From: Gammaproteobacteria bacterium | Lineage (GTDB): Bacteria > Pseudomonadota > Gammaproteobacteria > JAUZRS01 | Assembly (NCBI GenBank): GCA_030950195.1 | Contig: JAUZRS010000251.1 | Coordinates: 1-52,209, forward strand | DNA length: 52,209 nucleotides | Direction of reading: 5' to 3' | Shown: positions 21,597 to 47,055 of the stretch, piece by piece | Numbering within the stretch: the stretch's first letter is position 1 | Layout of the letters: each line of letters starts with the position of its first letter | The notes under the pieces: generated by a model | What the model was told of the DNA's origin: nothing | Seen by the model: only the letters and a program-made list of their open reading frames with translations | The model's database searches: none | Program-made: the position numbers and the translations under genes

Positions 21597-21699
21597 TCAC
21601 GCCGTCATTCCCGAAAATCACGCCGTCATTCCCGCAAACGCGGGAATCCACACGCAGATGCAACATCAACAAATGGATTCCCGCCTGCGCGGGAATGAC
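21597..21699. repeat. Cluster of ATTCCC-N8-GGGAAT palindromic repeats
   Basis: GTCATTCCCGCAAACGCGGGAATCCA (21625-21650) and its inverted partner TGGATTCCCGCCTGCGCGGGAATGAC (21674-21699). There is also a duplicated half-site TCACGCCGTCATTCCCG at 21597 and 21618. Confidence 0.75.
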
Positions 21700-23008: not shown

Positions 23009-23119
23009 TTATAAAATCGGCCTCTGTGTAGTGGTCAAGTAAATCTGGCCAAAGATTAGGAGCTAATTCCAAAATTGCAGCTCAGCTGACGCAGGGGATA
23101 ATCCTAAGTTGATTCAAAT

Positions 23120-23857
23120 TCACGCGGGTCCTCTCCCAACAATGCTCCTAACAACGTCAGTCAAACGGCACTTGAATTGATTAAAACTGGGCATATCAAT
23201 TCGGCACACATCAATATTATGTTCTCTCACTCGGTCTGCAATACCTTGAGCAGAGACCTCACCGGCCAACACCCTAGCCAGCTGAGTCTTCAAAGAGTGC
23301 GGCGCATTGTCATTGCCTGACTCACTTTCCAATGCATCACAGTGTTGGTAGTCTTTAGAGAGCGCACACAGCAGCCATGCCTCAGATTTGGGTTTAGGTA
23401 TCATCGGCACACCATAAGAAAAACCTTCATCATCAAACCCAGCCAACATGGAATCCCACTTGGCTTGCCAGTCACCTCGCCCCGCAGAAGCCGTGCCGTC
23501 TGCATCACGAAACAGTACCGCAACGACCTGATCGTTACACTCCGCTGCTTTTTCTTTTGCTCGTATGGCAAAAACACGAGCATTACGCCGATAATAAAGT
23601 GTTTCCGATCTGTTTTTTCTGCCTGGTAATGAAGGTGATTTTCGATGTGCTTTTAACTCTTGCGCACCTTGTGTCAACTCTGTTTCAGAGACGTACTCAA
23701 CAGATTCATTGTTAAGATCAAGATAAGAAAATTCGTAACCTTGAAGCCGCCCCAATAAGTGATCCACCATCACCGCCATCGGTCCTGCCATAAATTCAGC
23801 CGCATTATTCTTACCGCCTATATCTCCGACACCTTCTCCACTCAGCAAAAGGTACAT
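23120..23857 (-). CDS. Toprim-like (RloB/DUF4276-like) protein, partner of the upstream ATPase
   Basis: N-terminal LLLSGEGVGD (Toprim Glu), central VLFRDADG (DxD) and KSEAWLLCAL (E-x-W motif as in RloB-type proteins). The ATG overlaps the ATPase stop (TAATG). Motif-level inference only. Confidence 0.45.
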   Translation of the reverse strand: MYLLLSGEGVGDIGGKNNAAEFMAGPMAVMVDHLLGRLQGYEFSYLDLNNESVEYVSETELTQGAQELKAHRKSPSLPGRKNRSETLYYRRNARVFAIRAKEKAAECNDQVVAVLFRDADGTASAGRGDWQAKWDSMLAGFDDEGFSYGVPMIPKPKSEAWLLCALSKDYQHCDALESESGNDNAPHSLKTQLARVLAGEVSAQGIADRVREHNIDVCRIDMPSFNQFKCRLTDVVRSIVGRGPA

Positions 23858-25014
23858 TACTTGTCCTTATACCGCAGACCACTGATTTCATCAGCAAGCT
23901 GGCTTAGGTCTGTGTCCACAAATGCCTCCCCTGGCCCCATTAGTCTAAGCTTTTTGGCCATTGAAGGAATCGCAAATAGGGGAATTGCTTTGCTCAAGCC
24001 TGTATCTGTTTTGTAGAGATAATGAATGCCCGTTTTAGCCACCTCATCATCGAGATAGTTTAAGATCATCGGGCTGTGGGTAGTGACCAAAACCTGCTTG
24101 TCAGAATCAACCAAGCGTGTCATAAGAAACTCAATCAACTCAGGATTAATGCCATTTTCTATCTCATCAAACAACAGAAAACGATGTTCACTGAGCAGTT
24201 GTGCTAATACTGCGATCATACGCAACATGCCATCATTTATATGACGCGCATCCGTTAATAAATGATGCTGTCCATATTTTTCTTCTATAGAGAGCCCCTT
24301 CCAGCCTGAGCGCAAAGGGGCAACTTTTAATCGTTCAAGCTGAGGATAAATAGTATTCGTTTTTGCAAATAAAGTAGCTCGATGTTTTTCATTTAGCTCA
24401 TATAAAAAGGCAGATAAATTTTGCCCTCCTAAGCCCAGCTTGCCTTTTGCTTCACGAGTTCGACGACGTAACAGCTCTGGAGAAAGCAGATCCAGTGATT
24501 CAAGTTGAATAAAGAAATTCTTTAAATCCAATAAGTATGGAGTAAGCTGAGATGCTTTCAGTTGAGATAGAATCGACCCTTGATAGTCAAAAGCAATATC
24601 TCCTCGAAATAAGACTGTGTTTTTTCCCTGCTCGTTATAAATAACATAGTGGCCTTCTTCGACTTTCAAAACAACCTGACCGTTAGCAGTCACTCTTTCA
24701 CTGGTACAACGCAACGTCTGTCGATTAAACCCGGCCACCCACTGAAACTCTACTCCTTCGAACTGAAGGGTTACAAATAGGGAAATGTTACTTTTTCTGG
24801 TTAACTTGGAGTTAAGGTCTGCGGCTTTCCACTGTCGAGATTCCAGCCAGTTTTTTATATCGCCTTTAAATTGTTGGGCAATAAAATCGAGCAGTTGCAG
24901 TACAGTCGATTTACCTGAGCCGTTTAAGCCAACCAGACAAGAAAAAGGGGCCATTGGCAAATCAAAGTTCACCAAAGATTTAAAGTTATCTGCATGTAAG
25001 TGGGTTATCTTCAT
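23857..25014 (-). CDS. ABC/SMC-like AAA ATPase (AAA_15/AAA_21 type)
   Basis: MKITHLHADNFKSL start, Walker A GLNGSGKST, signature-like INDGMLRMIAVL, Walker B FLLFDEIENGINP and H-loop VLVTTHSP. Confidence 0.85.
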   Translation of the reverse strand: MKITHLHADNFKSLVNFDLPMAPFSCLVGLNGSGKSTVLQLLDFIAQQFKGDIKNWLESRQWKAADLNSKLTRKSNISLFVTLQFEGVEFQWVAGFNRQTLRCTSERVTANGQVVLKVEEGHYVIYNEQGKNTVLFRGDIAFDYQGSILSQLKASQLTPYLLDLKNFFIQLESLDLLSPELLRRRTREAKGKLGLGGQNLSAFLYELNEKHRATLFAKTNTIYPQLERLKVAPLRSGWKGLSIEEKYGQHHLLTDARHINDGMLRMIAVLAQLLSEHRFLLFDEIENGINPELIEFLMTRLVDSDKQVLVTTHSPMILNYLDDEVAKTGIHYLYKTDTGLSKAIPLFAIPSMAKKLRLMGPGEAFVDTDLSQLADEISGLRYKDK

Positions 25015-25139
25015 GGCATTGTCCCGTCAGCTACAGAGTCTATTGCTCTCATTTTTGCCCGTTACTGCTTTTACTTCCGCCAATAGATCAGAAAATTTTC
25101 CGTAGTTGATCTTCATACCACCACCATTATTTTAACCCA

Positions 25140-26270
25140 CTAATCAATTAACTCAGCACTGCTCAATTTTCGTAACAAAGCAGATCGGCCAGGATAACAA
25201 CGTTTAATTTCAACAACCTGTTCCTTAAAAGATTGCCAGTCATCTTGATGGTGAGCTAAATCACACAGCCCTTTTAAAATCGTCACGGCTTTATCGTATG
25301 ATTTTGATTTTTTCTCTTCGATTAAATCATAAACCTCCTGCCATGCCTCATCCTGTCTCGTTGCCAACACCGCCAATCGTTGTTGGCGAGCAATCTCCAA
25401 TTGACGTTGATGCTCTGCCTGTTGATCCCGTTTGTGTTCATCCTGCCGCTCAAGCAATTCTGCTATCGAGCGATTTGTTGATACATCTTTAGCGCCGTCA
25501 ACCTGCCCCTTTTTTGCCATTTTTTCTAACTTTCTGTTCAACAAAGCAGATAAATTTTCTTCACCATGAGCAAGGCGCAGAAGAAATTTACGCTGTTCCT
25601 TAGCAGGCAATTTATCAAGCCAAAGAGCCACATTAATTTTTTTCTCCTGCCGTGGCTTGCTTAGTTCTGCGGCAACAGCAACTAAGGCTTTATCAACGCC
25701 TAAAAACTTACACCACGCCACCTGCGCTGTGGAAAGCCTTTGTAACCCCGCAGGCAACGGTGGCTCCAAGAGATCAGCATCCACCTCACCATCATCCAAA
25801 ATATGTGCAGCGGCGAGCAACCAAGCCAAATACAAAGCACGAAAATCACCTTGCATTAACTCTGCTCTTAAATCCAGCAAATCATCCAGCCAACTCTCAG
25901 CATGCAACCAATCATCACTGCCATCATCTTGGAAATTAAAATCCAAAATAATGTGTTTTTTATCTTCCGAGAGAATACAATCAATCTCATCCGAAACCGA
26001 GAACAGAGCCACCTTTTTTATATCAACCAGCGAAACCGGCAAGCGAATCATTAAACGAAGTGATCCCCAGTCTGCCATATAAAGCATGATGTCAAAACAA
26101 CGCTCCATCAGCTGTACTTCATTGCCTCGAAAATCTCCGTAGTTATAAATAAAGGAGGCCTGATGAGAGGTGATTCGCGCTCGGCTGGAAAGTGTAGAAA
26201 GTTCCTTTTTTTCGACCTCACTCAAAGCACGGTCAATGGCACGAAACTCATAATATTGATACTCACTCAT
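25140..26270 (-). CDS. Conserved hypothetical protein (N-terminal YYEF...AIDR domain, charged coiled-coil C terminus)
   Basis: 376-aa ORF with a strong AAGGAG RBS 7 nt upstream. It begins MSEYQYYEFRAIDRALSEVEKKELSTLSSRARIT. No catalytic motif recognised. Confidence 0.6.
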   Translation of the reverse strand: MSEYQYYEFRAIDRALSEVEKKELSTLSSRARITSHQASFIYNYGDFRGNEVQLMERCFDIMLYMADWGSLRLMIRLPVSLVDIKKVALFSVSDEIDCILSEDKKHIILDFNFQDDGSDDWLHAESWLDDLLDLRAELMQGDFRALYLAWLLAAAHILDDGEVDADLLEPPLPAGLQRLSTAQVAWCKFLGVDKALVAVAAELSKPRQEKKINVALWLDKLPAKEQRKFLLRLAHGEENLSALLNRKLEKMAKKGQVDGAKDVSTNRSIAELLERQDEHKRDQQAEHQRQLEIARQQRLAVLATRQDEAWQEVYDLIEEKKSKSYDKAVTILKGLCDLAHHQDDWQSFKEQVVEIKRCYPGRSALLRKLSSAELID

Positions 26271-26338
26271 GGCCGCTTCTCCTTTACCTCTAAAATAATT
26301 AAACGCTTGTAATTAATAAAAAAACACCGTTCTTCATT

Positions 26339-26929
26339 TCACCACTCAATCCCTGCCTGCGCTTTCACCCCAAGACGAAACGCATGGCCGTCATCTTTGA
26401 TTGTGCTGATGGTATCGCCAATGGCCAACAGCTCCTCCACCATCGTCCGTCCGGTGATGATCACCGTCTGGTTTTTGGGGCGATGTTGCAACGCCGCCAC
26501 CACCGGCTCAATGGGCAAGTAACGGTACTTAAACATATAACTCATCTCATCCAGCACCAGCATATCAATGCTGTCATCTTGCAGCAGTTTTTCCGTCACC
26601 GCCCACGCCTGTTTCGCCGCCTCAATGTCCTGCTGCTTATCTTGAGTCTCCCAAGTAAAGCCATGCCCCATCACATGCCACTGCACCTGTGGGTGATCGT
26701 GAAACAGTTTATATTCACCGGTCTGCACTCGACCCTTGATGAACTGCACCACCGCACAGCTCTGACCGTGCCCCAGCGCCCGCGCCAAAGTACCAAAGGC
26801 AGAACTGCTTTTACCTTTGCCGTTGCCGCGCAGCAGAATCAACACCCCGCGCTCTTCCGTCGCCTTAGCAATGCGCTCGTCGATGACCGCTTTTTTACGC
26901 GCCATGCGCTGTTGATGATCTTGACTCAT
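26339..26929 (-). CDS. cobO: Cob(I)yrinic acid a,c-diamide adenosyltransferase
   Basis: 196 aa. P-loop-like GNGKGKSSSAFG, then VVQFIKG and LDE motifs typical of CobO/BtuR. The start overlaps the upstream chelatase gene by 4 nt. Confidence 0.9.
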   Translation of the reverse strand: MSQDHQQRMARKKAVIDERIAKATEERGVLILLRGNGKGKSSSAFGTLARALGHGQSCAVVQFIKGRVQTGEYKLFHDHPQVQWHVMGHGFTWETQDKQQDIEAAKQAWAVTEKLLQDDSIDMLVLDEMSYMFKYRYLPIEPVVAALQHRPKNQTVIITGRTMVEELLAIGDTISTIKDDGHAFRLGVKAQAGIEW

Positions 26930-28578
26930 AAAACCAACTCCAACTGAGAAAGGGGCAAGTAATCCGCCTGCAACAGAGCCGCCACTTCACGACAGCGCCC
27001 GCGCTTGACCGCCGCCACTTCGCTGTCGATCACCACGGTACGTCCAGACAAACGCACCGACGGCAAACACTGCCGACTGCGACCGTCACTGATTAAATAA
27101 TTCACCAACTGCAACTCCGGTTCCATCTGCAACCAGCGTTGAGTGCGACCCTGCAGGTAACTCAAGGCCTCGCGCAGCGGCGTACCTCCGGCAGCGGTCA
27201 AGCCATCCAGAAACGGCAATGGATTTTTGGGTGCGCGCTGGCGTGGCAACAGCTCTGTCACCTCTTGATTACCAAAACCGATCACCAACACCTGCTGACG
27301 CGCCAAATAGGCCTGCCGAGCAATGCCCGCCACCACCCCTTTGGCTTGAGCAAACGCCGACTCGCCCAACGTAGAGGCGGAACGATCCAGCAGCACCACA
27401 TGCAGCCGTTGTGGACGTTGACGCGCCCGCTGAAAAGCCAAACTCTGCCACGGCCAGATGCCACGATTGGCAACAACGGTGGCAAACCAACTCGGTTTGC
27501 TGTGCGTTTTCTGACTGCGTTTGCCTTGCGGCGCAAGGTTCGCAGATTTGGGCAACTCGGGCAGATTCACGCGACGCACAGCGGCGCTGGGCTGTGACTG
27601 TTCGCGTGCCATGCTGCCCCAATCTCCCGCCGCTTCGGTCTGTTTATCCGCCTGATTTTGCTCTGGCGGACGGCTAAAGGGAGGCGGTTCAGACGGCGCT
27701 GAAGGGGGTTCAGGTGGCGTTTTACGTCGATGCAGCAGCACCAACTCTTGCACCGCTTCCAGATCCGCCAAAGTCACTTCCACACGCCCCTGCCAAGCGG
27801 CGTGGCTTTTGGCCGCTCGACACCAGACAATATCGGCGCGCAACCCCTCCACCTGCGCCGCTGTGCAGCGTTCGGCAATGATTTCACGATGCTGTTCAGC
27901 GCACTGCACCGACGACAAACGCCGCCGAGCGGCCAGAAGTTCATCGGCCAAAGCTTGTTGTTGAGCCTGATAAGCCTGACAAAAAGCCTTGGGGTCGTCG
28001 TCAAAACCCTCGCGCTGGCGCACGATCTCGATCCGTTCCGCACGGCTGTAGATTCCGCTCAAAGAAACCGCCAAACCAAACCGATCCTGAAACTGGCTGC
28101 GCAGTTCTCCCTCATCAGGGTTCATCGTCCCCACCAGCAAAAACCGTGCGTCGTGTTGATGGCTGATGCCGTCCCGCTCAATGCAATTGATGCCGCTGGC
28201 GCTCACGTCCAGTAGTTGATCCACCAAATGATCGGCAAGCAGATTGACCTCATCCACATAAAGCACCCCCCGATGGGCGTGCTGCAACAGTCCGGGCTGA
28301 AATTCAACCTGCTGCTGATCCAGCACCCGTTGCAGATCCAGAGTGCCGATCAGCGCCTCTTCGCTGCACCCCAAAGGTAGGTTGATAAACGCACCCTCGG
28401 GCAACAGCTCCGCCAAACTGCGCGCCAAGGTGGATTTAGCCGCCCCTCGCGGACCGCTGATGCAGAGCCCGCCCAGACGCGGGTCGATGGCCAGCAGCAG
28501 CAAGGCGATTTTCACCGCCTGCTGCCCCACCACCGCTGAAAAAGGAAAATAACTCACAAAAAAAACCGCCGACCACAT
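26926..28578 (-). CDS. ChlI/ChlD(BchD)-like fused chelatase subunit: AAA+ module, Pro-rich linker, vWA domain
   Basis: FPFSAVVGQQAVKIALLLLAIDPRLGG, Walker A GPRGAAKST and Walker B LYVDEVNLL. Linker PPEPPSAPSEPPPFSRPPE. The C-terminal vWA domain begins VVLLDRSAS. ATG 28578 is preferred because the track start at 28611 translates a palindromic repeat. Confidence 0.8.
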   Translation of the reverse strand: MWSAVFFVSYFPFSAVVGQQAVKIALLLLAIDPRLGGLCISGPRGAAKSTLARSLAELLPEGAFINLPLGCSEEALIGTLDLQRVLDQQQVEFQPGLLQHAHRGVLYVDEVNLLADHLVDQLLDVSASGINCIERDGISHQHDARFLLVGTMNPDEGELRSQFQDRFGLAVSLSGIYSRAERIEIVRQREGFDDDPKAFCQAYQAQQQALADELLAARRRLSSVQCAEQHREIIAERCTAAQVEGLRADIVWCRAAKSHAAWQGRVEVTLADLEAVQELVLLHRRKTPPEPPSAPSEPPPFSRPPEQNQADKQTEAAGDWGSMAREQSQPSAAVRRVNLPELPKSANLAPQGKRSQKTHSKPSWFATVVANRGIWPWQSLAFQRARQRPQRLHVVLLDRSASTLGESAFAQAKGVVAGIARQAYLARQQVLVIGFGNQEVTELLPRQRAPKNPLPFLDGLTAAGGTPLREALSYLQGRTQRWLQMEPELQLVNYLISDGRSRQCLPSVRLSGRTVVIDSEVAAVKRGRCREVAALLQADYLPLSQLELVL

Positions 28579-28584
28579 TTGCTC

Positions 28585-28610
28585 GTCATTCCCGTGAATA
28601 CGGGAATCCA
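28585..28610. repeat. ATTCCC-N8-GGGAAT palindromic repeat, third copy
   Basis: GTCATTCCCGTGAATACGGGAATCCA has the same flanks (GTC...CCA) as the 21.6-kb copies. Confidence 0.75.
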
Positions 28611-28636
28611 TTGCTTACACGACAACAAGCTAAAAC

Positions 28637-29368
28637 TCACTGCGAAGCTTCAGTAGAGAACGTTAAACCACGGCGCAAGCCCCACGCAGCGAGCAACCCC
28701 AGCGCCAACCAGAAGAGCAGATTGGCCACGCCTGCCGAAAGCACAAACTGATGATGCAGCTCAACCAAGGAAGCCACGGCAGCGGGATCGGGGTGAATAA
28801 ATTCGGGGCCATTGAGCTGTGGCGCGCCAATTAAATGCGGCAACAGCAGCAACACAACACCCAAGGCTTTAAAAGGCAGCTGAGCAAAAAAGAGCAGGTA
28901 AAAACCCGCTCCGCTGGCCAGCACCGTCAGCAACCACCACGTTTGGCGCGACTCCAAGGCCGCCGCTTGGGTACCTGGAATTTCCGGCAACAGCCCCAAA
29001 CTGGGCGCAGCGAAGAAGGTCAAAAAACCCACCAAACCCCAGAGCAGCCCTGTGCCCAAACTGAACGGCGCACTGTTTTTAAGCTGCATGTAAGCCATCA
29101 GAGCCAGCAACATGGCTGCAAAACCAATCGCCGCCAACACATTGGAAAGCAGACTGTACAGCGTCCGCTCCACACCTTCTGCCGGTGCCCACGCTTCATC
29201 GCCATGAGAATGCGCACCGTGATGATGATCATGACCGGCCTCGGCCTGTTCAAATTGCTCAGCAGCAATGATAATCGGGGTCACTTGCCACTGCTGCACA
29301 GCGGTTAAAAAGAAACCGCTCAACAAACCCACAAACAGCGATAACAGAATCAATCGACGAAACAGCAT
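28637..29368 (-). CDS. cbtA: CbtA, cobalt transporter subunit
   Basis: Membrane protein with a His-rich loop GHDHHHGAHSHGDE. Lies downstream of cbtB and a cobalamin riboswitch. Confidence 0.8.
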   Translation of the reverse strand: MLFRRLILLSLFVGLLSGFFLTAVQQWQVTPIIIAAEQFEQAEAGHDHHHGAHSHGDEAWAPAEGVERTLYSLLSNVLAAIGFAAMLLALMAYMQLKNSAPFSLGTGLLWGLVGFLTFFAAPSLGLLPEIPGTQAAALESRQTWWLLTVLASGAGFYLLFFAQLPFKALGVVLLLLPHLIGAPQLNGPEFIHPDPAAVASLVELHHQFVLSAGVANLLFWLALGLLAAWGLRRGLTFSTEASQ

Positions 29369-29455
29369 CGTCCTCTCCTCACATTAGAAAGACGTTTTAA
29401 GAGCAAATCCCAAGACCCACCACCACAAAAAACCCAAACGACCAGAGCTTTTATT

Positions 29456-29496
29456 CCCCTCTTTGGAGGGGTGGCAGGCGAAGCCTGACGGGGTGG
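29456..29496. repeat. REP-like element in the cbtB-cbtA spacer
   Basis: Hairpin CCCCTC-tttg-GAGGGG (29456-29471), followed by TGGCAGGCGAAGCCTGACGGGGTGG. It sits in an unusually long 146-nt gap between two genes that are normally adjacent. Confidence 0.45.
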
Positions 29497-29514
29497 TTCT
29501 TGTTCAATGCGAAA

Positions 29515-29694
29515 TCAGTGACAGGGAAAGGTGACGCTGTGACGGGTGTCATGAGCGGCGTTATGCACCGCTTCGGTGGGCAAAAACCCCACCAGCAGCA
29601 TCATAACAGCGCCAAACAGAAAGCTGCCCAACAGGGCGACTTTGGCTTGGTCCAGCTCAAGAGGAGCGGCATTAGAGAGTGTGTTGTTTGACAT
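29515..29694 (-). CDS. cbtB: CbtB, small cobalt transporter subunit (59 aa, below the ORF-track cutoff)
   Basis: Minus-strand translation is MSNNTLSNAAPLELDQAKVALLGSFLFGAVMMLLVGFLPTEAVHNAAHDTRHSVTFPCH. It ends with the characteristic HNAAHDxRH...FPCH motif and has a GAGG RBS. Confidence 0.8.
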   Translation of the reverse strand: MSNNTLSNAAPLELDQAKVALLGSFLFGAVMMLLVGFLPTEAVHNAAHDTRHSVTFPCH

Positions 29695-29852
29695 AATAAC
29701 CTCGGGGCACCAGCCGTGCCGTAAATGAATGAAGTCTGAGCAGAGGCCGGTCTCCGGACTTGGGTGAAGACCCTTTACCGTTGCGGTGGCAGTGTTAGAG
29801 TCGCACTAAGCTTCCCGATTATCCCAACGCCACTGCGTCAGGCACCTCTTAA
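29695..29852 (-). promoter_or_regulatory. Cobalamin (B12) riboswitch controlling cbtB-cbtA-chelatase-cobO
   Basis: Minus strand shows GGTGCC...AATCGGGAAGCTTAGTGCGACTCTAACACTGCCACCGCAACGGTAAAGGG and the B12 box AAGTCCGGAGACCGGCC. P1 pairs AGAGGTGCC with GGCCTCT. A hairpin GGCAC-ggctg-GTGCC sits just before the GAGG RBS. Confidence 0.85.
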
Positions 29853-29879
29853 CAGCAGAGTATGATACCGAAGTTTGAC

Positions 29880-29911
29880 GTTTCAATCCACGCACCCGCG
29901 TGAGGTGCGAC
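29880..29911 (-). CRISPR. Solitary type I-C CRISPR repeat (array with no spacer)
   Basis: Minus strand reads GTCGCACCTCACGCGGGTGCGTGGATTGAAAC: 32 nt with GTCGC at the 5' end, an internal hairpin and an ATTGAAAC 3' end, as in canonical I-C repeats. It lies 177 nt downstream of cas2. No second copy was seen. Confidence 0.8.
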
Positions 29912-30088
29912 CGCCCGATTCTAATACACTAATTTTTAAAGAACAATTGGTAGATCTGCGCTAACCAGCACCACGAAGAGGTCGAAAATAAAAAAATCAG
30001 CAGTCTAAAGTATTATTTACATTAAAAACAATGGCTTAAAAACCCGCTAACCTCCCTAGGGTAAAATGAGAGCCAGAGGTTAGCGCAC
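29912..30088 (-). other. CRISPR leader region
   Basis: A/T-rich non-coding stretch between the cas2 stop and the repeat. Contains the hairpin CGCTAACCTC-21 nt-GAGGTTAGCG (30045-30085) directly after cas2. Confidence 0.6.
29918..29946 (-). promoter_or_regulatory. Candidate sigma70 promoter in the CRISPR leader
   Basis: Minus strand TTGTTC (29946-29941), a 17-nt A/T-rich spacer, then TAGAAT (29923-29918). The predicted start is at about the first base of the repeat. Confidence 0.4.
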
Positions 30089-30382
30089 TCAAAGAATCAA
30101 ACTGTCTCGCAAAGCATCAGGAACTGGCTTCGCTCCAACATGTTCGACTTTTTTCCTGCCTTGTTTACCCAAAAAATAAAAACGCAAACTGTCCTTTTTT
30201 GGATCAAAAATAGCCGTCAACTTAGCCTTAAGAACAACAAATTGAGCCGGTGTGACTTCACATTCAAACACCGAGTTTTGCACTCGCATCCCGTAATCAA
30301 GACAGGTTTTTGCGATGTTACGCAAACGTTTTGTCCCACCGTCAGACACAACACTCACATCATATGTAATCAGTACCAACAT
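30089..30382 (-). CDS. cas2: Cas2
   Basis: MLVLITYDVSVVSDGGTKRLRNIAKTCLDYGMRVQNSVFEC... is the classic Cas2 N terminus. The ATG at 30382 lies 1 nt after the cas1 stop. The track N-terminal extension overlaps cas1. Confidence 0.9.
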   Translation of the reverse strand: MLVLITYDVSVVSDGGTKRLRNIAKTCLDYGMRVQNSVFECEVTPAQFVVLKAKLTAIFDPKKDSLRFYFLGKQGRKKVEHVGAKPVPDALRDSLIL

Positions 30383-30383: not shown

Positions 30384-31400
30384 TTATTTAACCCAGTAAG
30401 GTGGATAGTATTCGAGATCGCCCCGAATGTGCCGTGCCAGCAACAACGCCTGACAATGAGGCAATAAGCCAATGGCCACCGACTCACCCAGATAAGGATG
30501 AGTCACCTCTGTCTGTTTACGTTCTTGCCATGCAGACAACACCGTCTTTCTTGCGTCATCTGTCAAACGCACAGCACCACTGGCTTCGGTCACAAAATCC
30601 GTCAATTGGATTTGGCGGCGATTGATCAATGTCAATACAAAACGATCAGCCCAAAACGCTCGAAACTCCTCCAGCAAATCCAGCGCAAGACTGACACGAC
30701 CAGGACGGTCTTTATGCAAAAACCCCACATACGGATCAAGCCCCACCCCTTGCAAAGCAGAAGAGCACTCATGAGTAATGAGCGTGTACGCAAAAGAGAG
30801 CAGCGCATTAACCGGATCCAGAGGAGGGCGACGAACGCGACCACTAAACACAAAACCTTTACCGCGAATCAGTTCATTAAACGCCCCAAAATAACTGCGC
30901 GCGGCATCGCCCTCCATCCCCATGACCTCTTCCACCGATTTGGCCTGCTTTACTCGACGCAAACTAACAGACAACTTTTCTGCCGCACCTCGCAACACAG
31001 AATTATCACCATGATTACGCAACTCCCTCATCAACACCGAGCGGCTATTGGCCACCTTAGCTGCCACCATCAAACGCGCAATCGAGGTGCATTTTTCATC
31101 TTCATCCGCCCAACGATATTGGCCACGTCGCAACAACACGTTGCCTGTTTGCGGCCCCTGAACTCGTGCTAGAAACTTGCCATATTCGCTATAAAACGTC
31201 AGCCCGATCCCCTTTTCACCACAGTAACCCATCAGAAAAGGAGAGACTGAAACCTGACCAAAACAGAGAATATTGCCAATCGTTAACGCCGGAAACTGCC
31301 CCAGCTTTTCATCCCCATTCTTAATAACAATGGTCTCTCGCTCTTTATGGAGATAACTTTTTTGGCGCGTAATATAAAGGCTGTTCAGCAATTTTTTCAT
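30384..31400 (-). CDS. cas1: Cas1 (type I-C)
   Basis: 338 aa. MKKLLNSLYITRQKSYLHKERETIVI start and conserved FGFxGR-like and EEFR regions. Lies between cas4 and cas2. Confidence 0.9.
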   Translation of the reverse strand: MKKLLNSLYITRQKSYLHKERETIVIKNGDEKLGQFPALTIGNILCFGQVSVSPFLMGYCGEKGIGLTFYSEYGKFLARVQGPQTGNVLLRRGQYRWADEDEKCTSIARLMVAAKVANSRSVLMRELRNHGDNSVLRGAAEKLSVSLRRVKQAKSVEEVMGMEGDAARSYFGAFNELIRGKGFVFSGRVRRPPLDPVNALLSFAYTLITHECSSALQGVGLDPYVGFLHKDRPGRVSLALDLLEEFRAFWADRFVLTLINRRQIQLTDFVTEASGAVRLTDDARKTVLSAWQERKQTEVTHPYLGESVAIGLLPHCQALLLARHIRGDLEYYPPYWVK

Positions 31401-32020
31401 TATTTAAATAACTCATCAATATAAGCGGCTGAATGATCACGACGAAACGTATCTGGTTCACACACATTCACCAAAGAGCAGGCTCTACACCGCTTTTTAT
31501 CTTTAATCGGCGCAGGGGTTTTGCCTAAATTCAGCAGTGTACGAGCCGCTTTAATCACCGCGATGGTGCTTTCTCTCAGTTCGGTGTTAATGCTGACCAG
31601 CTCTCGCTTACGCACCTCCCAGTACCAAAGAGCACCTTCGTTCACTGCCACGGAACGCATCTCTTCAAGACACAGTGCCTGCGCACAGAGCTGAATACGA
31701 TCCCAATCGTGTACTTTAGGCTTTCCCCGTTTGTACTCCACAGGAAAATAATGGAGTGGCTCACCCTCCTCGATCTCCAAAAGATCCATTTTTCCAGTGA
31801 GGCCGTATTGTTGCGAGTGCAGCAGCACACTGCGCTCGTATCTCTTTTCTCGCCGCTGCTCAGCAACCGTGCTGTCCACTCGCTCGTGCAACACCCGGCC
31901 TTCTGCGGTAAAGCGGTTTTCTTCCCACACTTGCTCAATATGAATCAAAGCAAATTGACGTGGACAGTAGGCATAATGTTGTAGGGCTGAGATGGCCAGA
32001 TGATCATCGTTCATCTTCAA
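31400..32020 (-). CDS. cas4: Cas4 (RecB-like exonuclease with Fe-S cluster)
   Basis: 206 aa. YAYCPRQF N-terminal Cys plus C-terminal CRACSLVNVC cluster. Overlaps cas1 and cas7 at both junctions. Confidence 0.9.
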   Translation of the reverse strand: MKMNDDHLAISALQHYAYCPRQFALIHIEQVWEENRFTAEGRVLHERVDSTVAEQRREKRYERSVLLHSQQYGLTGKMDLLEIEEGEPLHYFPVEYKRGKPKVHDWDRIQLCAQALCLEEMRSVAVNEGALWYWEVRKRELVSINTELRESTIAVIKAARTLLNLGKTPAPIKDKKRCRACSLVNVCEPDTFRRDHSAAYIDELFK

Positions 32021-32856
32021 AACCCATCAATTTCCTCTGGCTGTAAACCCTCCAAATTATCCAGCGTATAAGCTCCATCTGCCTTTACCGAAAGCGTCCG
32101 GTGAACCTTTGCAGATGAATATTGACCTGATTTACAGTTGTGTTTCCACCAAATCACTTTTTCAACCACCATACTGCCTTCTGGACGAGCAGAGGAAGAA
32201 TCACCCTCAAACAATTTGGGCAGTATCGTCTTTATTTTATCGGCATCCGCATCATCAAAGCCCGTTCGAACAGCCAATTGGGGCGACATTGCGCCAAACG
32301 TGACGTAAACGGCTTTATCAACACGGTGCTTCATGCCCATGGTATCTGAGCCTTTTTTAGTGCCATCGCCTTCACCGCTGACACTTTTGGTGATTTGTGT
32401 GCTGGTAATACTAACGGGTTCAACACTAAATGCAGATTGAATTGAAACCGGCCCCCGAATCGGAATAGAAACACCCTCTTTGTTTTCACCCTTAAAAGCA
32501 AACAGTTGTCCAAAACTGCGTACATCCATCCATTTTTCATTTGCTAGTCGTGCTGTTTCTACAGGCGTGGTCTTTTTTACATTAAACGCCTCTTTTCCTA
32601 AGCCATGCTCGCTCGACTCTGCACGTCTTTTTAAACTGGGCATACCATCGGTTTTTTTCTCATCCGACTGCACAAATATCGGCTCACCTGCATCTTGCAA
32701 GCGGTCTCGAATTTTTCGTTTGATGCAAACATCCGACACCTCACCAAAGCCATCGTAGTCGGTGCGAGGACGATTTCCGTTCAGTGGGTCACCGTTAGGA
32801 TTGGCATTTTTCACACTAAAAATCAGGGCGAAATCAATTTTATTTTCTAAGCTCAT
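32017..32856 (-). CDS. cas7: Cas7c (Csd2)
   Basis: MSLENKIDFALIFSVKNANPNGDPLNGNRPRTD... is the typical Csd2 N terminus. 279 aa. Confidence 0.9.
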   Translation of the reverse strand: MSLENKIDFALIFSVKNANPNGDPLNGNRPRTDYDGFGEVSDVCIKRKIRDRLQDAGEPIFVQSDEKKTDGMPSLKRRAESSEHGLGKEAFNVKKTTPVETARLANEKWMDVRSFGQLFAFKGENKEGVSIPIRGPVSIQSAFSVEPVSITSTQITKSVSGEGDGTKKGSDTMGMKHRVDKAVYVTFGAMSPQLAVRTGFDDADADKIKTILPKLFEGDSSSARPEGSMVVEKVIWWKHNCKSGQYSSAKVHRTLSVKADGAYTLDNLEGLQPEEIDGF

Positions 32857-34853
32857 TTGTTGTCTCCATCAGTTTGTAATTCGCTACTTTCATTTGTTTG
32901 TTTTTTATTGCGAAGCTCAAATCGTTGGGCGTGATACGCCAACAGAAACTCTCCACTTAAAGGTTTGTCACTCAAAAATTCACCTTCTTCGAATTTAACC
33001 ATAACCTCATCCAATAGAGTTTGGATGTTATGCAAAAATCCTGCTCGGTTATTTTTTAGCCGTTGAATATAGGGCAATAATGCCAGCTCGATGTTTCGCC
33101 AGGTTGATGAGGGTCGATCTGCAAATCGTTGCATTAATCTGGCCGCCGTGGTGGAGCGATTTTCTCCAGCCACATAAAGTGACACACCTTCAATTCTTTC
33201 TGCAATCGCCAGCAAGCGACCATATAAATAATCTCGTGACGTATTGTCTTGCTCTAATCCCACGGTATATTCCTTATTCTGTTTTGGATCTCGTTTACAA
33301 AAGCCTCGGTACAAAGCACAGGCTATTCCTAAGTGTTTTTCCCACAACCACTGTTCATCCGTTTTATAGGCACTTCGATTACTGGCACGGCGCACCGCTT
33401 TTTCAACCAAATCTTGTGGGAATGGACGCGCTTCAACAATACAGGGTAAAACACGCTCAATGGTATTTTTCTTCAGTGAATCACTTACCGTGCTGCCATA
33501 AATAGCCTCCCAGATTGCCCGAGGGGATGGCGCACAAACAGGCCATACTGTCTTTGACATTGGTTTTTTCTTGCCAACATCTTTTTCAACTTTATGGCGT
33601 TGATACCAAGCAAACTCGTTATGCCATTTTGAGACACGCTCAATGTAGTCATCAGAAAAAAATTCTTGGTAATAGGTAATCGCCATGCGACCAGGGGTTG
33701 CAGAATCAAGCCCCATGATGATGATGCTGTCTGTAGCCTGTAATTTGACCTGATAACCGGCCATGTACTTTCCCAGAGCAATGGAAAATTGCTGCCCCAA
33801 GTTTTTTGCATGATCAATCTGGTTTTCAAGCAGCGGTAGCGGAAGAGAAACCTCTTGTATCTCTTCTGGCATGGCATCCCAAAGGTCTTCCATTGGTTCG
33901 GGTATCTCCTCACCTGATACAGCCCAAGCGATAATAGCTTGATCCCCATTTCGGAACCCTTGCCGAGAAATCAACCACCGCAAAGCATTGTGAGCTTTTT
34001 GCGTTACATCAAAAGAAACTCCAACCGATTGCGTACCCTGCTTTTCTATTGTGTTCTTAGTATCCGTAAACCGACCTCTAAAGGTATAACCCGATTTGTC
34101 ATTTGATGAAATCAGTTTTGCTTTATCACCTGTATGTCGCAATTTAGCAGGATGGTTAACGGCCAACGGTACATTCTTGCCTGTGATATAACACAACCCT
34201 ATCTGCCCCTTACTTTCTGACTCATAGTTTACCCATGCACGTTGCAAACTAGAATCCTCCCAACTGTTGCTCACAGCCTCACCTGGAACCTCAATGCTCC
34301 AACAAACCAATGCATTACCTTGATCCAAGATGCCTTTTTCTTTCGGTAACACTTTGAATATTTTTGGAGCCTCACACTCACCACTTTTTGGCCAAGACAA
34401 CAACAATGAATGCTCTTCATCAGTAAACAGAACCTTACTTTCAAGCAAATCTTTTACAACACACCCTTTTTCAACATACAATTTTACCGCCCTTGCTTTG
34501 CAATGAGTGTATTTTGAGTTACACCATTTATCCAGCTGCTCAAGATACCCATTAAAGTAACCTTTCTTTTTACCACCATAATCTGGATAATCTTTAGCAA
34601 CGTATTGAATTTTATCGGCCAATGGATGAGGTGCTTCGCCACTGCTTCTACCCGCTGACTTTTCAGTTGCAGGCAGTACCACTTGTGTTTTTTCTAAAAC
34701 CTCAGCCCGCCTAAAATTACCTTCAACATCAAGGGTTATTTTGATATGTGCATTTTGCAAGGTATGACTAATCGGCATCAACTGGTCTGAGTCAGGCAGA
34801 TCAAGCTGCATACCTGCTTCGTAAGTCTCATACAACTTTGCCATCCAGCTCAT
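32853..34853 (-). CDS. cas8c: Cas8c (Csd1), large subunit
   Basis: 666-aa ORF between cas5c and cas7c with 4-nt overlaps on both sides. MSWMAKLYETYE start is typical of Csd1. Confidence 0.85.
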   Translation of the reverse strand: MSWMAKLYETYEAGMQLDLPDSDQLMPISHTLQNAHIKITLDVEGNFRRAEVLEKTQVVLPATEKSAGRSSGEAPHPLADKIQYVAKDYPDYGGKKKGYFNGYLEQLDKWCNSKYTHCKARAVKLYVEKGCVVKDLLESKVLFTDEEHSLLLSWPKSGECEAPKIFKVLPKEKGILDQGNALVCWSIEVPGEAVSNSWEDSSLQRAWVNYESESKGQIGLCYITGKNVPLAVNHPAKLRHTGDKAKLISSNDKSGYTFRGRFTDTKNTIEKQGTQSVGVSFDVTQKAHNALRWLISRQGFRNGDQAIIAWAVSGEEIPEPMEDLWDAMPEEIQEVSLPLPLLENQIDHAKNLGQQFSIALGKYMAGYQVKLQATDSIIIMGLDSATPGRMAITYYQEFFSDDYIERVSKWHNEFAWYQRHKVEKDVGKKKPMSKTVWPVCAPSPRAIWEAIYGSTVSDSLKKNTIERVLPCIVEARPFPQDLVEKAVRRASNRSAYKTDEQWLWEKHLGIACALYRGFCKRDPKQNKEYTVGLEQDNTSRDYLYGRLLAIAERIEGVSLYVAGENRSTTAARLMQRFADRPSSTWRNIELALLPYIQRLKNNRAGFLHNIQTLLDEVMVKFEEGEFLSDKPLSGEFLLAYHAQRFELRNKKQTNESSELQTDGDNK

Positions 34854-35566
34854 AATTTTTCTCCCTCAAGCTCCACGGACAAAAAGTTCTCACCTTCTAC
34901 GAACTCTTTTGGCAACATCGTACGAACAAAACGACTCACTGTACATTCCTCAGGGCGAGGAAATTCCAAAATTCCCTTTTTTAAAGTAGAACTCCAAAAA
35001 CGGCTGTGCAGTTCATTTTTACCCGTCTCATCTGGGTAATCAAAACCATGAAACATCAAACCAAAACCCAGCTCATCAATATCATCATAAGCACCGACTC
35101 CCTCACCAAATTCACATGGCTCAACGTAGGCCTGACAGTCACGAGTTCCCAGAAAAATATCCTGCCTGCCACCCCGTTCGATTGATCGTTTCGCAATGGA
35201 AAAGTGCTTGCCGTCAATATGATCCTTGGCCAATTCAGGTCGGTGTTCGTTCCATTCAAAATGCGCTTCGACCTGATACTCCACCTCATGCAAAAAGGTA
35301 TAAATGGCCAAACTGTTACCACCACTCCAGACCAACGGTTTGACACCCTTAGTCTGTGTTCGCAACGTTTTAATCACCCTCACCTTATCCACATACCAAA
35401 TAAAAGAAGGCTTCCAATAAATTGATTTTAAAACACCTTTTATGGCTTCATAAGTTGGCAAGTGATAGGAGCATTTTTCACCACCTATTTTTGTCACTGG
35501 ATCAGTAAACAGGGCATAACGCCCATGCACCTTGAAACTGACACTATTCTTTGGCGTTGCATACAT
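34850..35566 (-). CDS. cas5: Cas5c (Cas5d) pre-crRNA endoribonuclease
   Basis: SFKVHGRYALFTDPVTKIGGEKCSYHLPTYEAIKGVLKSIYWKP is the hallmark Cas5d N terminus. 238 aa. Confidence 0.9.
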   Translation of the reverse strand: MYATPKNSVSFKVHGRYALFTDPVTKIGGEKCSYHLPTYEAIKGVLKSIYWKPSFIWYVDKVRVIKTLRTQTKGVKPLVWSGGNSLAIYTFLHEVEYQVEAHFEWNEHRPELAKDHIDGKHFSIAKRSIERGGRQDIFLGTRDCQAYVEPCEFGEGVGAYDDIDELGFGLMFHGFDYPDETGKNELHSRFWSSTLKKGILEFPRPEECTVSRFVRTMLPKEFVEGENFLSVELEGEKL

Positions 35567-35578: not shown

Positions 35579-37993
35579 TTAAAAAACATGTGCTGTCATT
35601 TGACAACAGGGTTTATCAGACAAGCCAAATTCATTACTGTAATATTGCTCATCCAGACAGTAGATCTCTTCATCAGGCTGTATTTCATACACCGCTTTTT
35701 CTTGCTGTAATCGCTTCAACACATTCGGAAAAACATTGACACTGTATTGCTGCGCCTGCTTCAGCAAGTTACGATACCTTTTTATATCAAACTCTTTCGC
35801 CACACGCCCCAACTCAGCAATAATATTTTTCCCCTCATTACCATACGGAACAATGATCGCTTGTGTGGGCGAGTCAATCGCCTTGAATATCTTGCCAGCG
35901 GTCATAAAAGAGTGTTGCAGCAGAATAGATTTTTTATTTTGGCCAACATTCCGCGTATTCTCGCTCAATAAATTAAGCAGATCATCATCCCAACCCAACT
36001 GCTTGGCTGAAACAGGGTAACTCATCTCCTTAGCTCGATCATGAAAGTAATATTTAAAATACTGACCGATGGCCTCGGGAGCAAGCAAATTATCAAATCC
36101 TTCTTCCATTACCCGCAAGGCCTTATCTCGACCAACCTTGATTTCTTGCAATAAATCTATTTTTTCTTCATCTGGATTGACAACATGCACTGTCGCGCTT
36201 TTGAGTAAACCATTTCTATTGCAGCGCCCAGCGGCTTGCGCTATGGAATCCAATCCAGCCAGAAACCGAATCACTGAAGAAAAATCCACATCGACACCCG
36301 CTTCAATTAATTGGGTACTGATACAGATAACGGGTTGATTGCTCTTCAATCTCACCTTAATTTTTTTAAATATGACTTTACGGTGTGCAGGACAGAGACT
36401 GGTACTCAACTGAAAAATTGAATTTTCATCAACATCAGGATCCGTCTCTATCTCAAGGTACAGTTGTTGCGCCCAAGATTTGGTATTAACAATCACCAGA
36501 CAACTACCGAGTTTTTTAAATTCCGCCAAGGCAAGCTCTGAAATTTGAGCCGTTGTCCAGCCTTCAGGACGAACTTTGTTGCTCAAAGTCACACGATTTA
36601 AATCTGCAAACAATTTAGGTACATTGTTAACCAACTCATTTTCAGGCGGTAGCAGCAATTGCCCTTTCTCTGGAGAATGAAGTTTATCGAGCAACGGCTG
36701 CGTCGCGGTACAAAGTAGCGCAGTCGTTTTACAATGATCACTAAGGAAATTTAGCGCGTTGCAAAACAGGTGGACGCAATTTATTGGCAAAGTCTGAATC
36801 TCGTCAAAGATCAACACGCTGTTGGCCAGTTGGTGCATTTTTCTTGCGCCTCGTGTACCACCTGAAAACAGCACCTCAAGAAACTGCACCATCGTTGTCA
36901 TCACAATGGGTGCATCCCAATTCTCACTCACCAACTTGCTATGCCAACTCTGCTGTTCTGGCTCCAGATTCGAATGCTGTTCCAGAACCCACGGGGTTTC
37001 ATCCCTTGAATCTTCAATAACCGCTCTAATAGCCTCTGCGTTCTGTTCAATAATAGAGGTAAAGGGAATAATATAAATAATCCGATCCAGTTTATGCTGC
37101 TGAACATGATGCAGTGCGTAACGCAAGCTGGCGTAGGTTTTTCCTCCGCCAGTGGGAACAGTGAGGGTATAAATTCCCTGCGCATCTAACGCTCGCGCAC
37201 GGCACGTCTCTGAAATCTCTCTTCGCAATAGATCAATCGGCTTATCGCCATTGAATTTTTTATTAGCCCGCTCAAAACGTTCAATAGCAATAGTCCAAGC
37301 GGGTCTATTATTTCTATAAGGTTCATTCTCAGGAAATTCAAAGTCTGCGCTGTTCATACGGTCGGCATCAATCAAACAACTGAATAACAGACGGCTAAAA
37401 AAACCCACATTAAATGCTCGAATGGATTTATTAGGCGCTTGACCAACGACCTTGAGCCGCCGCCATACGCATTGAATCAACTCTTTTCCCACTAATGCCT
37501 GAATCTTTTCAAGGTACTCTTCTGGCGCGCTCTCCAATGCTTCATTTTTATGGGTTTTATGATCCGACTTTTCCATTCTTTTTGAGAAGCTATTCTTGCC
37601 GTCTGGCTTGAGACAATCAATCAAACCACTGTGGTGTGACGCAATACAAAGAGACAAAATTTGACCAACCAACTGCCCTTGTAGCCCCCACTTTTGGCAG
37701 CTCTCCCAAACCCATTGAGCACCGGCACTGGAATGATCAATCTTTCCCTTTAAACCTTTAAAATCAACAAAATCATCCTCATCTGGATTAATCAGGCCTG
37801 TCGCAGATGCTAAATATGTCTGAAATTCTGCACTGTATTTTCCAAAATCATGTAATAAACCAATGACTTCACCCGCATCACCTAGTCCTATTTTTTCTGC
37901 ACAACGTGCAGTCAAACAGCCCACTTCGTTCAAGTGATCAATCAGATTTTGCTTATCCCCATTTTTTTTCACATGAGCAATGTGGTTATTCAT
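35579..37993 (-). CDS. cas3: Cas3 HD nuclease / SF2 helicase
   Basis: HD motif LLHDFGKYSAEFQ. Helicase motif I VPTGGGKT and motif II IFDEIQ. 804 aa. First gene of the operon. Confidence 0.9.
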   Translation of the reverse strand: MNNHIAHVKKNGDKQNLIDHLNEVGCLTARCAEKIGLGDAGEVIGLLHDFGKYSAEFQTYLASATGLINPDEDDFVDFKGLKGKIDHSSAGAQWVWESCQKWGLQGQLVGQILSLCIASHHSGLIDCLKPDGKNSFSKRMEKSDHKTHKNEALESAPEEYLEKIQALVGKELIQCVWRRLKVVGQAPNKSIRAFNVGFFSRLLFSCLIDADRMNSADFEFPENEPYRNNRPAWTIAIERFERANKKFNGDKPIDLLRREISETCRARALDAQGIYTLTVPTGGGKTYASLRYALHHVQQHKLDRIIYIIPFTSIIEQNAEAIRAVIEDSRDETPWVLEQHSNLEPEQQSWHSKLVSENWDAPIVMTTMVQFLEVLFSGGTRGARKMHQLANSVLIFDEIQTLPINCVHLFCNALNFLSDHCKTTALLCTATQPLLDKLHSPEKGQLLLPPENELVNNVPKLFADLNRVTLSNKVRPEGWTTAQISELALAEFKKLGSCLVIVNTKSWAQQLYLEIETDPDVDENSIFQLSTSLCPAHRKVIFKKIKVRLKSNQPVICISTQLIEAGVDVDFSSVIRFLAGLDSIAQAAGRCNRNGLLKSATVHVVNPDEEKIDLLQEIKVGRDKALRVMEEGFDNLLAPEAIGQYFKYYFHDRAKEMSYPVSAKQLGWDDDLLNLLSENTRNVGQNKKSILLQHSFMTAGKIFKAIDSPTQAIIVPYGNEGKNIIAELGRVAKEFDIKRYRNLLKQAQQYSVNVFPNVLKRLQQEKAVYEIQPDEEIYCLDEQYYSNEFGLSDKPCCQMTAHVF

Positions 37994-38167
37994 GACATGT
38001 CTCAGTATTTTAAGGAGTAAGAAACCATAACATGAAACAAGTCTCTAAATAAGAATTTAAACACTATTAACCCCATCGTCTTGAATAAGATTCACATCAG
38101 ATAAGCCCTATTTTGTGGATCACAGTCACAACAGTGGCAGATCAAACCTTCCCCCTGCTTCAGCCTC

Positions 38168-38195
38168 GATGTCCGATGTCCGATGTCCGATGTTT
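38168..38195 (+). repeat. Heptanucleotide tandem repeat (GATGTCC)x3 plus GATGTTT
   Basis: Read directly: GATGTCCGATGTCCGATGTCCGATGTTT. Each unit carries an ATG, so successive ATGs fall in all three frames. Confidence 0.9.
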
Positions 38196-38253
38196 TATTC
38201 TGCTGTTGATTTGGCTAGAATGGCGCGCAATTACAACCATAAGGCATCAAACC

Positions 38254-39603: not shown

Positions 39604-39615
39604 AAATGCCTTATT

Positions 39616-41001: not shown

Positions 41002-41045
41002 ACTGCAATCCTTTATTTTTTAGCTAAAGCCTATTTACATTAATT

Positions 41046-41957: not shown

Positions 41958-42367
41958 GGATTATAAAGCTCTACTGAACTCTGCTGCATATCTGAAATAT
42001 TGCGCGTCACCACCACACAGTGATTGATTAAACCCGTCACCGCAATCAAACCATCAATGGCAGGCAACGGCTTACCCACGATCTCTGAAGCACCCTGTAT
42101 TTCACCCCACTTTGATGCAACACGCAAATCAATGGGTAAAACTCGTCCCTTGAAACGCTGTTTTAAATCATTCTCAAGCCATAATCTCAAACGGTTTTTT
42201 CTAATTTCATCAGATGATTTTTTTATGCCTTTCTCAATTTCACCAAAGGTGAGTACACTCAGATAAAGTGCTGACTCATCCTGTTTTTGCAACCATTGAA
42301 TCACGCTTTTATTTGGCTTTGGCCTAATCACCTCAGAAATAACACAGGTATCCAACAAATATTTCAC
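41942..42367 (-). CDS. vapC: PIN-domain toxin (VapC/FitB-like)
   Basis: MKYLLDTCVISE start carries the first acidic PIN residue. 141 aa. 4-nt overlap with the upstream antitoxin gene. Confidence 0.85.
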   Translation of the reverse strand: MKYLLDTCVISEVIRPKPNKSVIQWLQKQDESALYLSVLTFGEIEKGIKKSSDEIRKNRLRLWLENDLKQRFKGRVLPIDLRVASKWGEIQGASEIVGKPLPAIDGLIAVTGLINHCVVVTRNISDMQQSSVELYNPWENS

Positions 42368-42627: not shown

Positions 42628-42715
42628 CCTAACTATTTAAAACAGTGATGACTAGACACTAAAGCGTGAAACGATACGTGTCAAAAACCCAGCAAGGGCG
42701 GAACATATTCCACCC

Positions 42716-43690: not shown

Positions 43691-43806
43691 ATTTTATACA
43701 TCAGGAAGAACATCCCAATTATCAACAAAACCACAAACCCGCCAAAAAATCGCTTTATCTGTCATAGTCACTCCTATAAATTTTCTATCCAATTTTATTA
43801 AAAAAC

Positions 43807-47054: not shown

Positions 47055-47055
47055 A

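Follow-up and report, generated by a model that had tools for sequence, protein, structure and literature searches.

In the present study, we examined a contig of 52,209 nt from a gammaproteobacterial metagenome-assembled genome (MAG; lineage JAUZRS01, NCBI GenBank assembly GCA_030950195.1, contig JAUZRS010000251.1), which was analysed over its entire length and contains no N bases (hereafter the window), and in which a type I-C CRISPR-Cas island lies directly against a cobalamin-riboswitch operon. The reading that we favour, at a probability of roughly 0.6, is that the end of an acquired I-C island with an empty array now stands in place of the -35 half of the cbtB promoter, and that this state is a tolerated by-product and not an evolved link. 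More precisely, the distal end of the island would have displaced the -35 half of a native sigma70-type promoter belonging to the riboswitch-controlled cbtB-cbtA-cobaltochelatase-cobO operon. All elements and genes of the island and of the operon that are given coordinates below lie on the minus strand; the cas and cobalt/B12 genes were called with NCBIfam models and the riboswitch with Infernal/Rfam.

The island ends in one type I-C repeat of 32 nt, GTCGCACCTCACGCGGGTGCGTGGATTGAAAC (29880-29911), and this is its sole copy, as no second repeat was found in the whole window with up to three mismatches allowed. Likewise, a degenerate second repeat about 35 nt downstream was not found (local alignment score 13, shuffle median 12). 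The repeat belongs to the family found in the arrays of related loci and forms, on folding, a stem of 7 bp followed by an 11-nt 3' tail, UGGAUUGAAAC, ending in ATTGAAAC. Where an array is counted from two or more repeats with spacers, the window holds a single repeat and no spacer, which could be an effect of the assembly. From the repeat end it is 15 nt to the 5' edge of the cobalamin riboswitch aptamer RF00174 (29728-29864; full-length model match, 73 bits against a gathering score of 31.5 bits, E=4e-16), and 23-24 nt to its P1 stem, of which the first position is 29856 and the first canonical pair 29855. An earlier note on this DNA had reported a solitary I-C repeat ending at 29880 beside a riboswitch operon, and the repeat searches, RF00174 and NCBIfam all bear it out. 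The note had also placed the start of P1 at about 29852 behind a gap of 27 nt; the gap is indeed tiny, and its figures shift to those given here. Its statement that no room is left for an independent promoter is reinforced by the covariance model, which brings the aptamer edge even nearer to the repeat, so that the very scan it had named as able to overturn the proposal again leaves no space for a promoter.

Comparison with relatives indicates what stood there before. The lineage is represented by only two genomes in the protein database (Cas1 of the window is identical to MDQ7016890.1 and its CbtA to MDQ7016887.1; the next-closest Cas1 is at 87% identity, and an exact gene-position record for the Cas1 of the window was not found), and the deciding comparison is with contig JAUZSP010000007.1 of the sister MAG GCA_030949385.1 (L001), which encodes an identical CbtB. 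Positions 25004-29877 of the window align with this contig at 94.5% nucleotide identity, and the homology ends 3 nt past the repeat; the sister has no cas genes here, and about 55 nt separate its hrpB stop from the same riboswitch. In two more distant contigs, L002 (CbtA 79% identical) and L050 (75% identical), the same conserved block is directly preceded by a HEPN/MNT-type toxin-antitoxin pair and by an open reading frame (ORF) that resembles an RHH antitoxin by its C-terminal residues only, respectively. None of the three carries a CRISPR at the cbtB locus. The sister and L050 have GCCACCnCAAnCAAAyTTCGGTATCAT in common, and the only promoter hit in the three contigs consists of ATGCCA, TAGCCA or TTGGCT, then 17-18 nt, then TATCAT, the last being paired with a -35 that matches at 4/6 positions. 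In still more distant cbtB loci, a TTGACG-type promoter abuts the aptamer. What the window retains of the native block is CAAACTTCGGTATCAT only: homology to the three contigs begins at 29877/29878 and covers the remaining half of the promoter (29859-29877), namely CAAACTTCGG followed by the -10 TATCAT (29867-29862), with CATACT (29864-29859) as an alternative -10. The native -35 and about 10 nt of the spacer have been replaced by the 3' end of the repeat. On this comparison the promoter state of the window is derived, because the native -35 is still present both in the sister and in the more distant L050. In the synteny check that the earlier note had proposed, relatives without the cas island show that the place now taken by the 3' end of the repeat was formerly that of the native -35.

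The island itself looks horizontally acquired, since its composition is foreign to that of the flanks. From 29880 to about 38050 (8.2 kb) the GC content is 0.44 and the tetranucleotide correlation r is 0.62-0.74, and the flanks (1-23009, 25004-29877 and 38051-52209) have a GC content of 0.50-0.53 and an r of 0.89-0.94. Because the flanks are alike, both represent one genome type, and a chimeric contig was ruled out on the agreement of their GC and tetranucleotide composition. At its far side the island adjoins chrA and ordinary metabolic genes. Its type I-C operon, cas3-cas5c-cas8c-cas7-cas4-cas1-cas2 without cas6, is intact, and all seven genes are near full-length NCBIfam matches, mostly to I-C-specific models.

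Between cas2 and the repeat lies a CRISPR leader of 177 nt (29912-30088). It shares homology with those of about 11 related I-C loci, which were gathered via Cas1 homologues and used for the leader alignment. The related loci follow a common plan: the cas2 stop, a CGCTAACC...GGTTAGCGG hairpin, about 75 variable AT-rich nucleotides, GGTTAGCG, 11 nt, ATTGTTCTTTAAAAATTAG, 5 variable nt, TAGAAT, 6 variable nt and repeat 1. In the window, CGCTAACC is at 30085-30078 and GGTTAGCG at 30052-30045 and 29966-29959, and the first two of these sites pair as a hairpin just after cas2.

Two elements of the leader bear on transcription. One is GTTCTTTAAAA (29934-29944), which resembles boxA, the antitermination element of NusB/NusE, and overlaps the hexamer TTGTTC (29946-29941); nowhere else does the window match the boxA consensus GNTCTTTAANA, and eight related loci likewise contain a single match, in the leader region. 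It precedes repeat 1 by 22 nt in five of these loci (L006, L009, L010, L011 and L014) and by one nucleotide more in L046; in L017 and L018 the motif is present and a repeat was not detected, and other leaders carry near matches. The element is identical to the boxA of the Legionella pneumophila Lens CRISPR array, and the Legionella 11-mer, placed in the leader of a synthetic array, raised pre-crRNA (precursor of CRISPR RNA) about 10-fold (PMC7862264); a boxA has also been reported in the I-C leader of Myxococcus xanthus (bioRxiv 10.64898/2026.07.09.737519). More distant I-C leaders show the boxA-like GCTCTTTGACA at the same place, without a -10-like hexamer. The other element is the -10-like TAGAAT (29918-29923), 6 nt upstream of the repeat, whose position is kept in related leaders in the variants TAGAAT, TAGACT, TAGTAT, TATTAT and TAAGAT. 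By position weight matrix (PWM), TTGTTC-17-TAGAAT is the best promoter candidate in the leader of the window and in most related leaders, its -10 always ending 6 nt before repeat 1; it scores 10.2 bits, where shuffles give 7.7 at the median and 11.1 at the 95th percentile, and with 8/12 consensus positions it falls under the threshold of the promoter scan.

The cbtB operon would therewith be expressed from a hybrid promoter, by read-through from the leader, or by both, and which promoter fires is predicted here from sequence. For the hybrid promoter, the 3' end of the repeat (29881-29890) would provide the -35, for which the scan and the PWM scores suggest TTGAAA (29886-29881) or TGGATT (29890-29885), and the native TATCAT/CATACT the -10, so that transcription would start at about 29855-29850, at the 5' edge of P1 as in the relatives. 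The earlier note had put forward TGGATT with TATCAT; both hexamers are where it had placed them, and TTGAAA is the better of the two repeat-derived -35 candidates. For the read-through, transcription from the boxA and TTGTTC/TAGAAT region of the leader would yield an mRNA with a leader-repeat extension at its 5' end. No intrinsic terminator was found between the leader and cbtB, and because none intervenes, leader transcription through the repeat into the riboswitch is likely. Cas5c would then cut such a transcript at the base of the repeat hairpin and leave the UGGAUUGAAAC handle followed by the riboswitch mRNA. This cleavage, which the earlier note had expected, is mechanistically plausible, given that Cas5c is intact with its catalytic residues: it matches the Cas5d of Bacillus halodurans (4F3M) at E=1e-87 and keeps Y...KH, with SIYWKP and GKH conserved. 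In Cas5d the catalytic triad is Y, K and H, and the enzyme cuts at the hairpin base, leaving an 11-nt 5' tag (PMC5965381).

Several points weigh against the favoured reading. The hybrid -35 options are either weak (TGGATT, 3/6) or shift the -10 (TTGAAA-16-CATACT). Taken individually, the predicted promoters are at or below chance level and draw their support from the comparison with other genomes: TTGAAA-16-CATACT, the sole hit of the scan in the region, matches 9/12 positions, where about 0.4-0.9 such hits are expected by chance, and TGGATT-17-TATCAT matches 8/12, under the scan threshold. For the leader, no convincing promoter upstream of boxA was seen in the leaders compared, where the weak candidates (about 3-9 bits, -10 ending 86-103 nt before the repeat) have inconsistent positions; and for a single promoter, boxA and "-35" are mutually exclusive readings of the same leader motif, although the repeat would be transcribed under both alike. 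Furthermore, the exact junction pattern GTGGATTGAAACGTCAAAYTTCGG had 0 matches in JGI metagenome contigs, and the origin of the window from a MAG means that its spacer-less state could be an effect of the assembly.

The last two points lead to a first rival, that a real multi-spacer or population-heterogeneous array was collapsed to one repeat by the metagenome assembler. The leader would then be hundreds to thousands of nucleotides away from the riboswitch and read-through much less likely, with the last repeat still abutting the truncated cbtB promoter. That the window is the whole contig of an NCBI MAG, that related contigs commonly break at arrays (L007 and L009) and that a JGI contig (L049) also shows a leader with a single repeat all speak for such a collapse; nevertheless, the matching composition of the flanks leaves no room for a chimera between organisms, the repeat is complete in a continuous contig, a relative (L008) has a genuine one-spacer array, and the junction of repeat and promoter, together with the loss of the native -35, would persist even under collapse. 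We regard this explanation as unlikely. We are similarly doubtful about the literal form of an idea in the earlier note, in which TTGTTC-17-TAGAAT is the CRISPR promoter, starts at the first base of the repeat and, the native promoter having been destroyed, serves as the main or only promoter of cbtB, so that all cbtB mRNA would begin with the repeat hairpin. The hexamers do lie where the note had placed them, in a genuine and conserved leader; the top PWM rank, the constant distance of the -10 from repeat 1, the conservation of the hexamers although the 5 nt before the -10 and the 6 nt after it vary, and the absence of the native -35 are all in its favour. However, its "-35" lies within 11 nt that are identical to a functional boxA, an element that works only when transcribed, so that transcription may start upstream of the first base of the repeat. 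Conservation extends over the entire 19-mer ATTGTTCTTTAAAAATTAG, the would-be spacer region included, as is unusual in a promoter, the more distant leaders keep GCTCTTTGACA without a -10 at that position, and 10.2 bits remain below the 95th percentile of the shuffles.

A third rival holds that the lone repeat is an evolved crRNA-like or Racr-like element through which Cas5c/Cascade processes, binds or stabilises the cobalt/B12 mRNA, be it that Cas7 coats the 5' strand of P1 and makes the transcript insensitive to B12, or that a boxA-modified RNA polymerase overrides the polarity linked to the riboswitch. The repeat is perfect, Cas5c is intact, the 5' strand of P1 falls within the 35 nt after the 11-nt handle, and there are known examples of stand-alone repeats that act in regulation or as anti-CRISPRs (bioRxiv 10.1101/2023.03.03.530964; PMC10651486). 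Against this, the arrangement occurs on one contig, the sister MAG and the other relatives lack it, there is no second degenerate repeat, and the 35-nt pseudo-spacer after the repeat has no full, partial or seed match elsewhere in the window, the cas promoters included. With neither a pseudo-spacer match nor a degenerate repeat, the locus is unlike crRNA-like mini-array regulators or the phage Racr context, and a mini-array regulator of the CreTA/CreR/scaRNA type was rejected on the same two grounds. Besides, read-through of any array gives a trailer RNA tagged with the handle, and no special adaptation is required for that. An evolved coupling is, in our opinion, highly improbable. A more specific scenario, in which leader transcripts are Nus-loaded at boxA, run through the repeat into the riboswitch and are cut by Cas5c, and Cas5c/Cas7 on the handle and the following 35 nt or so, the 5' strand of P1 among them, keep the aptamer from folding and let some cbtB-cobO mRNA escape B12 repression, we consider very unlikely; were it true, the uptake of cobalt and the adenosylation of corrinoids would be tied to the expression of CRISPR-Cas. 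Nothing found here points to an evolved link between Cas proteins and cobalt/B12 metabolism: the arrangement is confined to one MAG contig, with an island of foreign composition, and is absent from a sister MAG at 94.5% identity. Moreover, promoter-like pairs that are as good as or better than the one in the window arise between the TTGAAA of the repeat and the first spacers of L008 and L009, hence the end of the I-C repeat is a generic -35 look-alike and the match in the window needs no special explanation. As far as these genomes indicate, the arrangement is strain-specific, with no sign of selection for Cas-dependent control. We return to the acquired island with a tolerated junction: most likely, repeat and operon came to lie side by side when the island was inserted, or when its array collapsed, at a variable locus, and an evolved link between Cas and metabolism is probably not present.

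Minimal arrays were also seen among the relatives. In L008 (Logan SRR31550840), a minimal I-C array (7488-7584) has one spacer between two repeats, of which the terminal one is degenerate (…GAATT), and uvrD follows about 90 nt after the array with an extended -10 promoter of its own. In L049 (JGI contig Ga0114931_10045862), an I-C leader and a single repeat (3632-3664) are followed by about 290 nt of non-CRISPR sequence, with only a partial Cas1 match upstream, pointing to either a decaying locus or the same assembly effect.

The leader has further features of its own. GGTTAGCG, twice, and its complement CGCTAACC, once, account for 3 of the 4 matches of this motif in the whole window, and across the leaders compared (L006-L019, L042 and L046) the distance between the GGTTAGCG motif and repeat 1 is constant at 47 nt; the motif may serve in protein binding or in integration. 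The hairpin after cas2, CGCUAACC...GGUUAGCG, was considered as a terminator and rejected: the hairpin is conserved, but a U-tract after it is found only in the window.

The upstream junction of cbtB is variable in its own right. Four genomes have four different neighbours against the cbtB promoter, namely the CRISPR island in the window, hrpB with restriction-modification and BrnTA genes in the sister, the HEPN/MNT pair in L002 and the RHH antitoxin-like gene in L050; the junctions (29877/29878 in the window, about 9818 in L001, about 5615 in L002 and about 120 in L050) cluster within about 15 nt. This site looks like a hot spot of turnover of defence and toxin-antitoxin genes. In addition, 5 kb away from the CRISPR island, positions 23010-25003 constitute a 2-kb insertion relative to the sister (GC 0.44), a second strain-specific defence module, whose two minus-strand ORFs (23857-25014 and 23120-23857) encode a PADLOC candidate defence system, PDC-M25A (AAA ATPase, E=1e-157) and PDC-M25B (E=9e-90).

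Within the cas operon, cas3 (HD nuclease and helicase; 35579-37993; TIGR01587 and TIGR01596) is the first gene, followed by cas5c, the pre-crRNA endonuclease (34850-35566; TIGR01876, E=5e-74), cas8c (32853-34853; TIGR01863, E=2e-107), cas7c (32017-32856; TIGR02589, E=5e-92), cas4 (31400-32020; TIGR00372), cas1c (30384-31400; TIGR03640, E=2e-152) and cas2 (30089-30382; TIGR01573), which by translation encodes 97 aa from the ATG at 30382, the length that the Cas2 of relatives also has. Some related I-C operons carry cargo, either a Bro-N domain protein between cas4 and cas1 (L006-L008) or a MazE/PIN toxin-antitoxin pair between cas7 and cas4 (L009-L011); the operon of the window has neither the Bro-N gene nor the MazE/PIN pair. 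Near the left edge of the island, between cas3 and the divergent chrA, the heptamer CGGACAT occurs three times in tandem (38169-38189).

On the other side of the junction, the riboswitch precedes cbtB (29515-29694; TIGR02459), cbtA (28637-29368; TIGR02458), a putative cobaltochelatase gene (ChlI/ChlD-like AAA+; 26926-28611; TIGR02442, E=4e-129, which is below the curated cut-off) and cobO, for cob(I)yrinic acid a,c-diamide adenosyltransferase (26339-26929; NF004637). RF00174 was also matched in five other contigs (L001-L005), and a compensatory change in P1 from G-C to C-G (AAGAGG/CCTCT versus AACAGG/CCTGT) separates L002 and L050 from the window. By sequence and fold, the expression platform (29695-29727) comprises a hairpin (29720-29706) and the Shine-Dalgarno sequence GAGG (29703-29700), without a terminator. 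B12 control appears to be retained by the riboswitch and to act on translation, because the platform is close to the Shine-Dalgarno sequence and has no terminator. Minimum free energy folds of transcripts with and without the leader/repeat extension gave z-scores near 0. A pairing of AACUUCGG (29876-29869) with the Shine-Dalgarno region was discarded, as it occurred in one fold and had no covariation support in L002. Palindromes resembling repetitive extragenic palindromic elements, GTCATTCCCGC-N-GCGGGAATCC, are present at 21625-21699 and at 28585-28612, the latter being the junction of cbtA and the chelatase gene, and in L005 a comparable element, GGATTCCCACGC...GCGTGGGAATC, is found upstream of the riboswitch.

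Other repeats in the window are within coding sequences and are unrelated to the junction of CRISPR and riboswitch. At 10341-11114 there is a periodic unit of about 150 nt ending in ...DGxVWxWG (RCC1-like), and at 50384-50774 there are units of 36-84 nt rich in GAT/ATC (calcium-binding type).

If the assembly is right, the window presents a complete CRISPR-Cas system with an empty array, in which leader and one repeat would be the minimal substrate for spacer acquisition, and the boundary of a defence island would have halved a housekeeping promoter, so that the operon now relies on island sequence, be it the -35 of the repeat end or read-through from the leader. It would illustrate how the turnover of defence islands can rewire the expression of adjoining metabolic genes, and the ends of I-C repeats (TTGAAAC) would be ready-made -35-like elements. 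The locus also offers a natural construct for asking whether Cas5c/Cascade acts on a non-CRISPR mRNA. By itself it does not reveal a new regulatory system, the arrangement not being conserved. To our knowledge, the juxtaposition of a CRISPR repeat with a riboswitch operon has not been described before.

Set beside known systems, the locus most resembles, on its CRISPR side, canonical type I-C (Dvulg) loci with boxA leaders such as those of L. pneumophila Lens and Myxococcus xanthus, with which it shares the gene order and the 32-nt repeat family ending in GTGGATTGAAAC, together with a leader homologous to those of related loci and a boxA, GTTCTTTAAAA, that is the one of Legionella. Unlike these, its array is spacer-less, has one repeat and runs straight into the promoter of a protein-coding operon, without a trailer. 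With solitary repeats and mini-arrays (crRNA-like regulators and phage Racr) it has in common a single near-perfect repeat after promoter-bearing sequence, which the cognate Cas nuclease would bind or cleave. However, the repeat of the window occupies the canonical place of an array, with a full leader and adaptation module before it, has no ψ-spacer target and no degenerate repeat, and is neither on a phage nor beside an acr gene; an empty array is its best reading.

On its promoter side, the locus recalls the type II-C arrays of Campylobacter jejuni and Neisseria meningitidis, in which promoter elements are embedded in the repeats (PMC3656092). Here, too, the 3' end of a repeat would give a promoter element to the adjacent downstream sequence, but the II-C element is an extended -10, a conserved design serving every spacer, whereas the I-C repeat end of the window is only -35-like and is paired, seemingly by accident, with the resident -10 of a neighbouring operon. 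Hybrid promoters also form at the ends of insertion sequence (IS) elements and genomic islands, where an outward-facing -35 is joined to a resident -10. In the window, similarly, the resident -35 half has given way to acquired DNA, whose end presents a replacement -35 at a spacing that can work; what differs is that this end is formed by a CRISPR repeat instead of the inverted repeat of an IS, and that the hybrid promoter is a predicted one. Finally, as in other cobalamin-riboswitch cbtAB/B12 operons, the RF00174 aptamer is followed by cbtB-cbtA-chelatase-cobO and the promoter abuts the aptamer as in the relatives, except that the native -35 is missing and that a CRISPR repeat and leader lie upstream. 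Every component of the locus is of a known kind.

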